Virus record (IMG/VR): IMGVR_UViG_2541047698_000010 | Length of the DNA: 15,255 bases | Source: a virus | Taxonomy: Duplodnaviria > Heunggongvirae > Uroviricota > Caudoviricetes | Strand: one strand, 5' to 3' | Shown: piece after piece, positions 9,943 through 14,826 of the stretch | How the letters are laid out: each line of letters begins with the position of its first letter | Numbering within the stretch: the stretch's first letter is position 1 | Program-made: the position numbers and the translations under genes | The notes under the pieces: generated by a model | The model's database searches: none | Told to the model about the DNA's origin: nothing | What the model saw: the letters and a program-made list of their open reading frames with translations, nothing else

Positions 9943-10039
9943 TATCCTTGATAACTATTAAAAATCGCAGTAAGTTCATCCTGCATCAACGAAAAGGGAG
10001 TGCAGTCCCGCTCGTGGATAAAAATTTGTGGAGAAACCA

Positions 10040-10855
10040 ATGAATCAGTTGCTTGTAATTGATGGCGTTTCTGTGCGCCAGTACTTCGAATCTAACTACT
10101 GTCTTAACGACCTTCAGAAAGCAGCTCTTCTTGCCGCTGGTGAGAATCGCTCCTCCCGTTCGCTGGAAGTTCACGAGTTTATGCGTCGTCCTGAAACGAA
10201 GGCTCTTGTGGAATTATTGGAAGAAGAAACTACGGGAGATTCCCGTAGTATTCCTGTCATCACCATTCAGGGGCGCAATGGTGGGACGTATGTCTGTAAA
10301 GAGCTGGTCTATGCATATGCAATGTGGATCAGCCCGGCATTCAGCTTAAAAGTGATACGTACTTTTGATGCGCTTCATAATTCATCACCAGAAGAAACCA
10401 CATCCGACAAAATTAAATCCGGGGTCATTCTGCTTGAATCAGCAGCAAAGACTCTAAATCTGTCAAACTCCTCGAAACTTGGTGCATACCAGAAATTATC
10501 AAAGGTAGCTGGTCTTCCTGAACTTATGCCGATCTATGCCATTGATGCACCTGCTGATGCGCCAGATGGTTCAAGCCGCCCTACGCTGTCGCTGAGTGCA
10601 CTGCTGAAGCAGTATGGTATCCGCCTGACGGCTAATCAGGCATATCACCAGATGGCGAAGCTGGGGATCGTTGAACAACGCGAACGATACAGCCGTACCG
10701 CGATTAACAACATCAAAAAATTCTGGTCGCTGACCGCGAAAGGCTGCATGTTCGGCAAGAACATCACCAGTCCTGCAAATCCGCGCGAGACGCAGCCGCA
10801 TTTCTTCGAATCCCGATTCCCTGAGCTGTTAAAGCTGCTCGATACCGTTCATTGA
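10040..10855 (+). CDS. KilA-N domain protein (antirepressor / Roi-like)
   Basis: N-terminal 110 aa (..VIDGVSVRQYFESNYCLNDLQKAA.. ..IPVITIQGRNGGTYVCKELVYAYAMWISPAF..) resemble a KilA-N domain. ATG at 10040 with GGAG 6 nt upstream. The ORF-track GTG at 10028 is less likely. Confidence 0.7.
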   Translation: MNQLLVIDGVSVRQYFESNYCLNDLQKAALLAAGENRSSRSLEVHEFMRRPETKALVELLEEETTGDSRSIPVITIQGRNGGTYVCKELVYAYAMWISPAFSLKVIRTFDALHNSSPEETTSDKIKSGVILLESAAKTLNLSNSSKLGAYQKLSKVAGLPELMPIYAIDAPADAPDGSSRPTLSLSALLKQYGIRLTANQAYHQMAKLGIVEQRERYSRTAINNIKKFWSLTAKGCMFGKNITSPANPRETQPHFFESRFPELLKLLDTVH

Positions 10856-10856
10856 G

Positions 10857-11852
10857 GTGACCGTGAGAGCACTACTGACCCCTGAAATTGCCCCGCGTAT
10901 GGGGATCGTATTGTTCAGACCAGGTTCAGAGCTGATGCCCTTGTTTATGCAGGGGCGTGTCCTGCTGGAGCCTGAGCCGGAACGTTATTCATCTTTCGCC
11001 AGTGGTGCCGTTCCGGCGGCATCACAACCGCTGGCGGATGATCCTGCCGTTCGGGCCGTGTTCCGCAATGAGGCAGTGATCCGTCGTGCTGGTGGCGTGG
11101 AATGTCTTGAAAGCTGGTTACTTCGTGAAAAAGGCTGCCAGTGGCCTCATTCCGACTGGCACAGCGAGAACATGACAACAATGCGACACGCTCCGGGCGC
11201 AATCCGTCTGTGCTGGCACTGCGATAACCAGCTGCGCGATCAGTTCACGGAACGGCTGGAATCAATGGCAACGGATAACTGTGCCCGCTGGGTGTTGTCT
11301 GTTGTGCGTCGGGATCTCGGTTTTGATGACAGTCATGTTGTGACAATGCCGGAACTGTGCTGGTGGCTGATTCGTAATGATCTGGCGGATGCCTTACCGG
11401 AAAGTGCAGCCCGTAAGGCACTGAGATTACCGAAGCCTGTTGTGCCGTCTGTTACCCGGGAAAGTGACCTTGTGCCTTCGGTTCCTGCCACCAGCATCAT
11501 CCAGGATAAGGCGAAAAAGGTGCTGGCGCTGAAAGTGGATCCGGAGTCGCCGGAGTCTTTTATGTTACGCCCAAAACGTCACCGCTGGGTTAATGAAAAG
11601 TACACGCGCTGGGTTAAGACGCAGCCGTGCGCATGTTGTGGAAAACCTGCTGATGATCCCCACCACCTGATAGGCCACGGTCAGGGGGGAATGGGTACAA
11701 AAGCGCATGACCTTTTTGTGTTGCCTTTGTGCAGAAAGCATCACGACGAGCTGCATGCGGATACCGTGGCATTTGAAGAGAAGTATGGCTCCCAGCTGGA
11801 GCTGATATTTCGTTTTATCGATCGCGCACTGGCGATTGGTGTGCTGGCCTGA
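10857..11852 (+). CDS. DUF968-like protein with C-terminal HNH-like zinc-finger motif
   Basis: 331-aa ORF. C-terminus C.CC....DDPHHL....GG.G.K.HD.....[10 protein letters not shown] resembles a His-Me / HNH finger. Start codon uncertain (GTG at 10857 or a downstream ATG). Confidence 0.55.
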
Positions 11853-11869
11853 TTTTGTGGAGAAAGTTA

Positions 11870-12253
11870 ATGCGTGATATTCAGATGGTTCTTGAACGTT
11901 GGGGAGCGTGGGCGGCTAATAATCATGAAGATGTGACCTGGTCGTCCATTGCCGCCGGTTTTAAGGGATTAATTCCTTCAAAAGTAAAATCTCGCCCGCA
12001 ATGTTGTGACGATGACGCGATGATCATTTGCGGGTGCATGGCCCGTCTGAAAAAGAACAACAGCGATTTACACGATTTATTAGTAGATTATTATGTATGT
12101 GGTATGACATTCATGTCACTGGCAAGTAAGCATTGCTGCTCGGATGGTTATATCGGGAAAAGGTTACAGAAGGCTGAGGGCATAATTGAAGGGATGTTAA
12201 TGGCATTAGATATCCGGTTAGATATGGATATCGTTGCTAATAATTCTAATTGA
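11870..12253 (+). CDS. Q: Late-gene antiterminator Q (phage 82 / DLP12 QuuD type)
   Basis: 127 aa from the ATG at 11870 with GGAGAAA upstream. [26 protein letters not shown]... is recalled as 82-type Q. The ORF-track TTG at 11855 is unlikely. Confidence 0.8.
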
Positions 12254-12275
12254 TATGCAATTGTTTACTAAAAGT

Positions 12276-12303
12276 TATTAAAAATGGGGCGTGGAAACGC
12301 CCC
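12276..12303 (-). terminator. Intrinsic terminator for the leftward porin / sRNA transcript
   Basis: Stem GGGGCGT (12286-12292) / ACGCCCC (12297-12303), 4-nt loop, followed on the minus strand by AUUUUUAAU. Confidence 0.5.
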
Positions 12304-12450
12304 CAAAATAAAGGGTAATATATAACAGAAGGTTTATATAGTAAGAAGCAAGGTAGTGCTTCTAAAGGAAGTGGCTTGAGGGCTCCACTTATATGTTGCG
12401 GAGGCAAAGCCTCCCGCAACATATCTTTTTCGTAAGTCAGATTAGAACTG
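12280..12450 (-). ncRNA. ipeX: Candidate IpeX-like sRNA at the porin 3' end
   Basis: By analogy with DLP12, where IpeX spans the nmpC 3' end and intergenic region. Here there is about 170 nt between the porin stop and the minus-strand terminator. No promoter was verified. Confidence 0.3.
12395..12430 (+). terminator. Intrinsic terminator for rightward transcription leaving Q (tR'-like or insulator)
   Basis: 11-bp stem with one bulge (12395-12405 / 12409-12420), loop AAA, followed by AUAUCUUUUU on the plus strand. Not U-flanked on the minus strand. Confidence 0.5.
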
Positions 12451-13524
12451 ATAAACCAGACCTACAGCGACGATGTCGTCGGTATCAATACCAGCTGTTT
12501 TGGTAAACTTACTATCGTCAATTAAGTTGATTTTGTAATCAACAAAAGTGGACATGTTTTTATTAAAGTAGTAAGTAGCACCGACATCGACATACTTGAC
12601 TAAGTCTCGGTCACCATGAACACCAAGGTCTTTACCTTTTGACTGAAGGTAAGCAACAGATGGACGCAGACCGAAGTCAAACTGATATTGTGCTACTGCT
12701 TCAAAGTTTTGTGCTTTGTTTGCAATATGGTTATTACCAAAAACGGTCATATTCTGAGTTTCAGAATATGTGGTAGCCAGATAGATATTGTTCGCATCAT
12801 ATTTCAGGCCTGCAGCCCATACTTCCGCATTTTTGCCGGAGGCATTGAATTTGCTCTTACCATAGGCGACCTGACCGTCAGTGCGATCTGATTTAGCATA
12901 GGTTGCACCCACGCCGAATCCTTCATACTCATAAGTAGTGGAGAAACCGAAACCATCACCATTGGCTTCAGTTACGTCAGTGCGGTCATTTTTACCCTGA
13001 TACTGAGCAGCAAAGTTCAGGCCATCGACCAGACCAAAGAAGTCGTTGTTACGATAAGTTGCAACACCAGTAGTGCGACCAGTCATGAACACATCTGTTT
13101 GGGTCCAGGTATCACCACCGAATTCTGGCAGGACGTCAGTCCACGCACCGATGTCGTATGCTACACCGTAGTTACGGCCGTAATCGATTGAGCCGTAATC
13201 ACCAAATTTCAGGCCTGCAAATGCAAGACGGGTTTTGTCTTTGGAAGAACCTTGAGATTCAGCACGGTTGCCTTTGAATTCATATTCCCACTGACCGAAA
13301 CCAGTCAGTTGATCGTTGATTTGGGTTTCACCTTTGAAGCCAAGACGGGCATAAGTAGTATCACCATCATCTGCATCATTAGAGGAGAAGTAGTGCTTGG
13401 CATTAACTTTCCCGTATAGATCCAGCTTGTTACTGTCTTTATTATAAATTTCAGCTGCCTGAGCAGACATCGCCATCAGTACTGATGCAGCTACAGCAGA
13501 AATTGCCACTGTTAATTTTTTCAT
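12442..13524 (-). CDS. nmpC: OmpC/OmpF-family general porin, prophage-encoded (NmpC / Lc-like)
   Basis: 360 aa with a signal peptide ([23 protein letters not shown]), a beta-barrel pattern with alternating aromatics, and C-terminal ..VGLVYQF. Opposite strand to Q and the lysis genes, as in DLP12 and PA-2. Confidence 0.9.
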
Positions 13525-13900
13525 TGTACGCCCTTTTTTTTGAACTATTATTAAAAAATGATGTCACTGCGCGATAAATATTCATCTAATCAATGCGATT
13601 ATTTCAAGATGTAAGTTTTAGTTTCTCATTTAATTTGTGAAGTAGATCTCTATTTTTATCTAAACCTTTTCTATCTAATCCTATTCATGGCTCTTGTTTG
13701 AACGAAAATAAATCTATTAGCTAATTTATATTAATGGCACTTATTTATAAGAGATCTATAATTCTTTAGCTTAATTTAAACAAACTAAAAATAACATCGG
13801 AAATTATTCATTGGTTATTTGTTGAAGTTTTCTTATGTATTTGTGGTGGTGTTTTGAACACTCGGTGGCATTCTCACAAATATCATTTAGTAGTTTACGT
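13525..13900 (-). promoter_or_regulatory. AT-rich upstream regulatory region of the porin gene
   Basis: About 375 bp of strongly AT-rich DNA with A/T tracts directly 5' of the porin start. No individual promoter boxes were assigned. Confidence 0.35.
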
Positions 13901-13951
13901 ACGTAAAAAATTGGTTATGCTGTTAAGAGTGGTTACTTCGTCACACAGCTT

Positions 13952-13984
13952 AAACCCGCCGTCGAGCGGGTTTTTCCATTTTTT
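13952..13984 (+). terminator. Intrinsic terminator upstream of the lysis cassette (tR'-like)
   Basis: 8-bp stem AAACCCGC / GCGGGTTT (13952-13959 / 13966-13973), 6-nt loop, then TTCCATTTTTT. Confidence 0.65.
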
Positions 13985-14113
13985 GAGTCTCGATATTAGC
14001 TGATAACCCAATACCTGAGTTATTCACTGACTCCGAATCTGTTACGTTTCTGCCTTTATTGCGATACGTAGTATCCCCTTAATTTACACCCGCTTTGTCT
14101 GCGAGGTGGGGTT

Positions 14114-14329
14114 ATGAAATCCATGGATAAGTTAACAACGGGTGTCGCCTATGGCACCTCAGCAGGTAGTGCCGGATACTGGTTTTTACAGCTGCTAGAT
14201 AAAGTCACGCCCTCACAGTGGGCGGCAATTGGAGTGCTGGGTAGCCTGGTATTTGGCCTGCTGACGTACCTGACAAACCTTTATTTCAAGATTAAAGAAG
14301 ATAAGCGCAAGGCTGCGAGAGGTGGATAA
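14114..14329 (+). CDS. essD: Class II holin, phage 21 S-type pinholin with dual start (S21-71 / S21-68)
   Basis: 71 aa beginning MKSMDK (Met1 and Met4 dual-start motif), two transmembrane segments, basic C-terminus. GAGGTGGGG Shine-Dalgarno upstream. Confidence 0.9.
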
Positions 14330-14826
14330 TGCCTCCATCATTACGAAAAGCTGTTGCTGCTGCTATTGGTGGCGGGGCTATTGCTATAGCATCTGTGTTA
14401 ATCACTGGCCCAAGTGGTAACGATGGTCTGGAAGGTGTGAGACATAATCCTTACAAAGACATAGTTGGTGTATGGACTGTATGTTACGGGCATACAGGAA
14501 AAGACATCATTCCCGGTAAAACGTATACCGAAGCAGAGTGCAAAGCCCTCCTGAATAAAGACCTTGCCACTGTCGCCAGACAAATTAACCCGTACATCAA
14601 AGTCGATATACCGGAAACAACGCGCGGCGCTCTTTACTCGTTCGTCTACAACGTGGGTGCTGGCAATTTCAGAACATCGACGCTTCTTCGCAAAATCAAC
14701 CAGGGCGATATCAAAGGCGCATGTGACCAGCTACGTCGCTGGACATACGCTGGCGGTAAGCAATGGAAAGGGCTGATGACTCGCCGTGAGATTGAGCGTG
14801 AAGTCTGTTTGTGGGGGCAGCAATGA
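14329..14826 (+). CDS. rrrD: SAR endolysin (phage 21 R-type lysozyme, T4-lysozyme fold)
   Basis: 165 aa. N-terminal Gly/Ala-rich signal-anchor-release segment ([16 protein letters not shown]). Catalytic E-D-T spacing in ..[22 protein letters not shown]... TAATG coupling with the holin. Confidence 0.9.

Follow-up and report, generated by a model that had tools for sequence, protein, structure and literature searches.

An IpeX ortholog in the 3' UTR of a lambdoid prophage porin gene: predicted pairing with the ompC leader, and a late promoter homolog beyond the porin

The window, which is the whole 15,255-nt stretch of DNA analysed here (IMG/VR record IMGVR_UViG_2541047698_000010), is a portion of a lambdoid prophage. 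Across 11855-14330 it shows 100% identity to Escherichia phage PhiR49_1 and ~99% identity to several further sequenced phages. This segment contains an antiterminator gene, a porin gene on the opposite strand and the beginning of the lysis cassette, with the following features:

11870..12253, plus strand: antiterminator Q gene, quuD type, 127 aa (Pfam PF06530, E = 7e-54)
12278..12444, minus strand: IpeX ortholog forming the 3' UTR of the porin mRNA, 167 nt, 94.0% identical to K-12 ipeX over the full length
12278..12303, minus strand: intrinsic terminator of the porin/IpeX transcript (stem-loop 5), with the stem at 12303..12286 and the U-run at 12284..12280
12391..12430, plus strand: terminator-like hairpin 12391-12424 followed by C-TTTTT; on the minus strand it is stem-loop 1 of IpeX (nt 21-54)
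12442..13524, minus strand: phage porin gene, NmpC/Lc type, 360 aa, intact (Pfam PF00267, E = 2e-151)
13633..13653, minus strand: CRP site in the porin promoter region, identical to misc_binding 1363-1383 of the PA-2 record J02580
13894..13977, plus strand: pR' homolog, with a -35 element TTTACG (13894-13899), a -10 element TATGCT (13916-13921) and a start at ~13928
14114..14329, plus strand: holin gene of the essD / S21 type, the first late gene (Pfam PF04971; RefSeq essD)

The Q protein of the window is 81% identical to Q of the Stx2 phage 86 (933W type) and 32% identical to Q21, and it matches PDB entry 6p18 with E = 4e-8. The RefSeq name of the identical gene is quuD, and an identical chromosomal copy is ordered quuD, porin, essD. 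The porin is annotated as OmpD or as porin in the identical phages and is homologous to lc of PA-2. The phage-21-type holin gene is followed by a lysozyme gene. The Q gene, ending at 12253, and the porin gene, with its stop codon at 12442-12444, converge on a gap of 188 bp. To the left of Q, the plus strand of the window encodes a KilA-N domain protein and a DUF968/HNH protein (10028-11852). In K-12 and in strain SK1144, the genes ybcN-ninE-ybcO-rusA-ylcG precede an identical Q-ipeX-porin block, and these differing genes ahead of an identical block show mosaic recombination at the left edge of Q. Inside the Q gene, the minus strand carries a promoter-like GTGACA-18-CATAAT (12090-12119), whose position resembles that of the paQ antisense promoter of phage 21.

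Judged by its sequence, the element in the 188-bp gap is IpeX, which is already known. Reviews describe IpeX as a 167-nt RNA of DLP12 and PA-2 that represses OmpC and OmpF. The K-12 gene has been assigned to positions 574365-574531 of MG1655, reverse strand, 167 nt (supplement, PMC8313858), a span beginning with base 1 of the nmpC stop codon and reaching into the terminator U-run. The end-to-end alignment of 12278-12444 (minus strand) with K-12 ipeX has 158/168 identities (94.0%), and the gap as a whole can be aligned over its entire length with that between quuD and nmpC in the K-12 prophage DLP12. The sequence 3' of the PA-2 lc porin gene is identical to K-12 ipeX at 167/167 positions and 94% identical to the window; here the match begins at the lc stop codon. 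The window element likewise adjoins the 3' end of the porin gene on the same strand, from the stop codon onwards, and its 3' end is a Rho-independent terminator. Nucleotide 1 of IpeX is the T of the porin TAA, and this 5' end is an annotation convention rather than a mapped end. An earlier, sequence-only reading of the window had suspected an IpeX-like small RNA 3' of the porin gene; with this degree of similarity over the full length and with the same position, it proves to be a true ortholog of K-12 ipeX. The other elements of that suggestion, a size of ~170 nt, the minus strand and a swap of the host porins for the phage porin, agree with what has been published on IpeX of DLP12 and PA-2.

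The RefSeq annotation of MG1655 lists micF and has no ipeX feature. The Rfam covariance models, run over 11500-14500, gave no match to an IpeX family and no hit at the gathering score. The two sub-threshold hits are at chance level: sau-19 scored 23 bits (cut-off 80) and Trp_leader 20 bits (cut-off 41), the latter at 13857-13979 on the plus strand with E = 0.78, driven by a terminator hairpin and regarded as chance.

Of 5426 complete E. coli genomes, 2501 (~46%) carry IpeX. The same layout, i.e. Q followed by ipeX and the porin on the opposite strand, is found in 2490 genomes and 36 phage records. A BLAST search of IpeX against phages returned 36 records, all with at least 92% identity and none more distant. 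According to an exact 20-mer scan of species-representative genomes, IpeX is essentially confined to E. coli. The scan also hit two stray contigs by a 20-mer of stem-loop 1: a 442-bp contig labelled Streptomyces alkaliterrae (L088) and a 58-kb contig from a Syntrophomonadaceae metagenome bin (L090), both of which are most likely due to E. coli or phage contamination or to misbinning. Insertion sequences recur within or beside ipeX (L025 2600-3310; L086 2577-4088; L001 2092-3286; L096 1947-3141). In L025, an IS200-type tnpA interrupts IpeX after about nt 17, and the porin gene gains a new simple terminator; in L086, strain Z1323CEC0015, IpeX is split by an IS3 element. The K-12 prophage DLP12 and phage 434B share one IS5 insertion after codon 346 of the porin gene.

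The gap contains a terminator-like structure on each strand, as the sequence-only reading had claimed for 12395-12430 (plus strand) and 12276-12303 (minus strand). Both are present and these coordinates are essentially correct; the minus-strand terminator, which had been placed about 140 nt past the porin stop, has a stem that begins 139 nt beyond it. This stem, GGGGCGU/ACGCCCC, has 7 bp (6 of them G-C) and a UUCC loop and is followed by AUUUUUAAUA. Its energy is -13.8 kcal/mol, only 1 of 200 shuffles folds as well, and the element was found by the consensus scan. The plus-strand hairpin at 12391-12424 has 15 bp, one bulged C and the loop AAA, and continues with C-UUUUU-CG (T-run 12426-12430). 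It was missed by the consensus scan because the scan allows no bulges. At -21.9 kcal/mol (z = -6.4) it is matched by none of 200 shuffles, and as a terminator it has just five U residues, with a C between the stem and the U-run. Read on the minus strand, the same hairpin has an energy of -22.5 kcal/mol and is followed by AAGUGGAGCCC, with no U-run. Since the U-run is on the plus strand only, the hairpin is terminator-like on that strand only. By prediction, it would end an unmodified Q transcript, and a role as a shield against antisense read-through into the porin gene is plausible.

Against shuffled sequences, the 175-nt minus-strand RNA in its entirety has a folding z-score of -5.9. A porin-based search of IMG/VR yielded 80 loci of little diversity, in which all porins are 100% identical. 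The variant set comprised 12 distinct IpeX sequences from 85 loci, and their consensus fold has five local stem-loops. Stem-loops 1 and 5 are the two hairpins described above, and the remaining three lie between them:

12369..12390, minus strand: IpeX stem-loop 2, AAGUGG/CCACUU with a 10-nt loop, variation confined to the loop
12344..12363, minus strand: IpeX stem-loop 3, AGAAGCA/UGCUUCU
12319..12340, minus strand: IpeX stem-loop 4, a weak all-A/U stem of -2.1 kcal/mol, whose loop ACCUUCUG is an anti-Shine-Dalgarno sequence

The variable columns are distributed unevenly, 3/82 in the stems versus 17/85 in the unpaired positions (Fisher p = 0.0014). In stem-loop 1, a G/C change between variants moves the bulge and keeps the helix. 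Stem-loop 3 has one A-to-G change that turns an A-U pair into G-U and is tolerated solely in the minus-strand RNA, and every substitution in stem-loop 5 is in the loop. No compensatory base-pair change occurs among the 12 variants, since no known copy falls below 92% identity, and the IpeX structure is accordingly supported by thermodynamics and by the location of the substitutions. Immediately upstream of IpeX, the minus strand gave no promoter-like hit in the scan, which fits co-transcription with the porin gene.

The position of the late promoter changes the picture of transcription through this region. According to the sequence-only reading, the late transcription that sets out from Q has to traverse the whole porin gene in antisense. 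This is not borne out: the stretch matching the pR' region of Stx phages lies at 13891-13975, between the porin and holin genes, and with the pR' homolog beyond the porin, Q-modified late transcripts would start to the right of the porin gene. In pairwise BLAST alignments with Stx phages, homology covers Q (11870-12202) and then jumps to 13891; on this comparison, a porin-ipeX cassette of ~1.7 kb is inserted between Q and pR'. In Stx2 phage 86 and in Sakai Sp5, TTTACG-16-TATCAT is found directly after Q. A start 7 nt past the Stx -10 element is 258 nt upstream of the U-run of a GCCAGCC/GGCTGGC hairpin, and the pR'-to-tR' distance mapped in Sakai by dRNA-seq and Term-seq is also 258 nt; the mapped start and end are displaced by an equal offset, 142, between assembly versions. 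This agreement in spacing shows that the Stx promoter after Q fits the mapped pR' start site. The Q-porin gap itself has no recognizable pR'/qut/tR' cassette: scanning the plus strand of 12254-12390 brought up nothing resembling a promoter, and a search of the window at up to 3 mismatches gave no Q21-type binding element. An identification of the plus-strand terminator in the gap with tR' was considered and is ruled out by the position of the pR' homolog. Antisense entry into the porin gene could occur only by read-through of early transcripts from pR.

Several details of the pR' module deserve to be recorded. Its first terminator hairpin, detected by the consensus scan at 13952-13973 together with a T-run, is ~50 nt from the start and is the sole terminator-like site ahead of essD. 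The homologous first hairpin of Sakai is evidently read through, since the RNA mapped from pR', the long form of StxS, extends over 258 nt. Right behind the start, the window, K-12, Stx2-86 and SfII share an unchanged block, TAAGAGTGGTTAC. Positions 13929-13949 (plus strand) are identical to 1067-1087 of the PA-2 record J02580 (AGTGGTTACTTCGTCACACAG), annotated there in 1986 as a CRP binding site; this site falls in the initial transcribed region of the pR' homolog and may belong instead to the Q-loading or pause region. A perfect palindrome, TTTACGTACGTAAA, at 13894-13907 overlaps the -35 element, where Stx phages have TTTACGATCGTAAA. It is a candidate binding site for the Q family of the window, and it differs from the Q21 element, which consists of the direct repeats ATTGAGCA/AATGAGCA. 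In Shigella phage SfII (L003 421-1730), minus-strand genes without known function are found directly left of a pR'-like module and holin gene, and the site left of the pR' module may be a general insertion point for cargo genes.

IpeX shows an extensive complementarity to the leader of the ompC mRNA. Helix and local analyses were carried out with the K-12 porin leaders as targets. Whole-length duplex folding of IpeX against 240-nt targets was dropped after it had produced unrealistic long looped duplexes. The region concerned is as follows:

12306..12338, minus strand: IpeX nt 107-139, with complementarity (9 + 15 + 3 bp) to positions -31 to -3 of the ompC leader

The core of the duplex is formed by nt 111-125 (AACCUUCUGUUAUAU), i.e. 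the loop and the 3' arm of stem-loop 4, which pair without a break with ompC -21 to -7 (AUAUAACAGAGGGUU). This 15-bp helix of 14 Watson-Crick pairs and one G-U covers the Shine-Dalgarno sequence, and an uninterrupted helix as long was obtained in 9 of 1000 dinucleotide shuffles. It is extended on one side by nt 131-139 with ompC -31 to -23 (9 bp) and on the other by nt 107-109 with ompC -5 to -3. The extended duplex has an energy of -26.7 to -28.3 kcal/mol. Opening the pairing regions costs 4.6 kcal/mol in IpeX and 6.5 kcal/mol in ompC; the net gain is about -17 to -20 kcal/mol, and co-folding of the full RNAs yields a gain of ~20 kcal/mol while leaving stem-loops 1-3 and the terminator intact. 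Viewed from the plus strand, 12306-12338 reads like an inverted porin leader: 27/29 positions match the ompC leader with one 4-nt gap, a score reached by 3 of 2000 shuffles. The pairing is identical for the IpeX of K-12 and PA-2, and 5364 of 5426 genomes carry an ompC leader with at least 99% identity. The match has apparently been overlooked so far. The pairs run as 10 Watson-Crick, one G-U and then 4 Watson-Crick, for which reason BLASTN with a word size of 11 would miss them.

The ompF leader can form a weaker duplex, in which IpeX nt 119-134 pair with ompF -14 to +2, from the Shine-Dalgarno sequence to the AUG (10+5 bp, -15.8 kcal/mol). In these A/U-rich sequences the shuffle p-values depend on the statistic, being ~0.002-0.014 for ompC and 0.02-0.36 for ompF. 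The two controls, the ompA leader and the leader of the phage porin itself, showed no comparable pairing with IpeX. The predicted specificity, ompC above ompF and nothing for ompA, matches the reported phenotypes. The abstract of the original 2006 IpeX paper (Castillo-Keller, Vuong, Misra; J Bacteriol 188:576) is said to state that no complementarity was found, and repression of ompC was reportedly Hfq-independent and that of ompF Hfq-dependent. If the pairing is true, the long ompC duplex would explain the independence of Hfq and the short ompF duplex the need for it. [quoted passage not shown]

The competing explanations differ in how much of this they accept. IpeX may be real and act without pairing, e.g. 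through titration of a protein or through its structure, in which case the likeness to the ompC leader would be a relic of recombination between porin genes. This accords with reviews in which IpeX does not base-pair, with one review in which its mechanism is not solely reliant on complementarity, and with descriptions of IpeX as Hfq-independent with one likely direct target; nor is there covariation to prove the pairing. A relic, however, would have to place 27 potential base pairs exactly over the ompC Shine-Dalgarno sequence at the net energy given above, with a similarity score that shuffles rarely attain and with a specificity that fits the phenotypes, and a match of this kind is one that a word-size-11 BLASTN search would miss. 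Action without pairing is therefore held to be rather unlikely, if a serious contender. A more radical proposal denies IpeX a role in natural lysogens: the gap would hold just two insulating terminators, back to back, belonging to an inserted porin cassette, and the effect in K-12 would be a multicopy artefact. IpeX was reportedly found as a multicopy suppressor in the original paper, and IS elements are tolerated in or beside ipeX. A study of clinical isolates saw no clear relation between ipeX and OmpC levels. Yet ~40 nt are enough for a terminator, whereas IpeX spans 167 nt and has five conserved stem-loops whose stems are avoided by substitutions; complementarity to ompC is not expected in a mere spacer, and the review literature ties the loss of OmpC and OmpF to expression of PA-2 IpeX. 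Simple insulation is thus improbable.

Slightly less probable still is convergent control in cis, in which the Q transcript and IpeX would destroy or sponge each other; stray Q expression could then be damped in lysogens, or IpeX could be removed on induction. The geometry would allow it, as a Q transcript ending at 12430 would be perfectly complementary to IpeX over 153 nt (12278-12430), and lambda-type phages do use antisense RNA against Q, with paQ annotated in phage 21. The overlap nevertheless lies in the 3' UTR of Q, short of the coding region, N-modified polymerase would ignore the terminator, and Stx phages of the same Q family are entirely without the arrangement. It is hardly credible, finally, that the gap encodes a small protein. 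A 58-codon open reading frame (12422..12246, minus strand) appears in the mechanical ORF list, but it was rejected as a gene: in 8 of the 12 variants, the K-12 and PA-2 type among them, the frame is interrupted by a stop codon or broken by a frameshift; the stem of stem-loop 1 sequesters its start codon, and the frame continues through the terminator.

The favoured reading is that the 3' UTR of the porin mRNA is an IpeX that would repress OmpC and OmpF, with pairing as the proposed mechanism, that the plus strand carries a putative terminator for the Q transcript and that pR' lies past the porin; as a whole it is considered quite probable. In a lysogen, the porin gene would be transcribed leftward from its own promoter with the CRP site, and transcription would run 167 nt past the stop codon, through the five stem-loops, to end at the terminator 12303-12280. 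IpeX, whole or processed, would lower the synthesis of OmpC and OmpF post-transcriptionally, as suggested by homology with DLP12 and PA-2, and the phage porin would then take the place of the host porins. The single-stranded stretch and the weak stem-loop 4 within nt 107-139 would pair with the ompC leader and cover its Shine-Dalgarno sequence, a weaker pairing would engage ompF between the Shine-Dalgarno sequence and the AUG, and ribosome binding would be blocked. On the plus strand, stem-loop 1 would terminate the rightward Q transcript of RNA polymerase that is not antiterminated, while late transcripts would start at the pR' homolog at ~13894-13928, downstream of the porin cassette.

IpeX and the phage porin together change the set of outer-membrane porins of a lysogen, which bears on the availability of phage receptors and on antibiotic permeability. 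OmpC is the receptor of PA-2. The predicted pairing would offer a simple mechanism for an RNA whose action is listed as unknown or non-pairing; if true, it would overturn the textbook view and resolve a question of mechanism left open since 2006. Apart from the match to the ompC leader, the IpeX element described here is ordinary. The window copy has an intact porin gene and its exact sequence has been deposited as a phage isolate, so that it lends itself better to experiments than the K-12 locus with its IS5 disruption.

The closest known systems are the IpeX loci of DLP12 and PA-2, with which the window shares the position, the strand, the 167-nt length, the five stem-loops and the anti-ompC segment, as well as the neighbours, a quuD-type Q on one side and the essD lysis cassette on the other. 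Ten differences separate the window IpeX from that of K-12, and nearly all of them fall in loops, linkers or bulges. Whereas IS5 has broken the porin gene of K-12 and 434B, that of the window is intact; this viable phage should therefore produce the RNA from the porin gene's native promoter. With respect to the lambdoid cassette of pR', Q-binding site, pause and tR', the window Q belongs to the Q21/933W superfamily and its module is homologous to that of Stx phages. Unlike the late cassettes annotated in phage 21 and mapped in Stx phages, the module is 1.7 kb away from Q instead of adjoining it. Cargo can thus sit between Q and its promoter, besides the known location downstream of tR' (the stx genes).

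Among small RNAs, IpeX resembles those derived from 3' UTRs, such as the StxS short form, which is cut from the pR' transcript by RNase E, MalH and NarS. All are the tail of a longer transcript, and IpeX shares with the processed ones the use of the intrinsic terminator of the mRNA and a U-rich stretch before the terminator hairpin. It differs from them in that its action on ompC is reportedly Hfq-independent. The likeness to MicF, acting on ompF, and MicC, acting on ompC, consists in an imperfect duplex of ~20-30 bp, for IpeX a predicted one, at or near the ribosome-binding site of a porin mRNA and in the location next to the gene of the replacing porin (micF by ompC, micC by ompN). IpeX differs from both in being phage-borne and in that its pairing, predicted here, is denied in the literature. 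MicF and MicC are, moreover, independent genes, whereas IpeX is without a promoter of its own and is the 3' UTR of the mRNA of the replacing porin.
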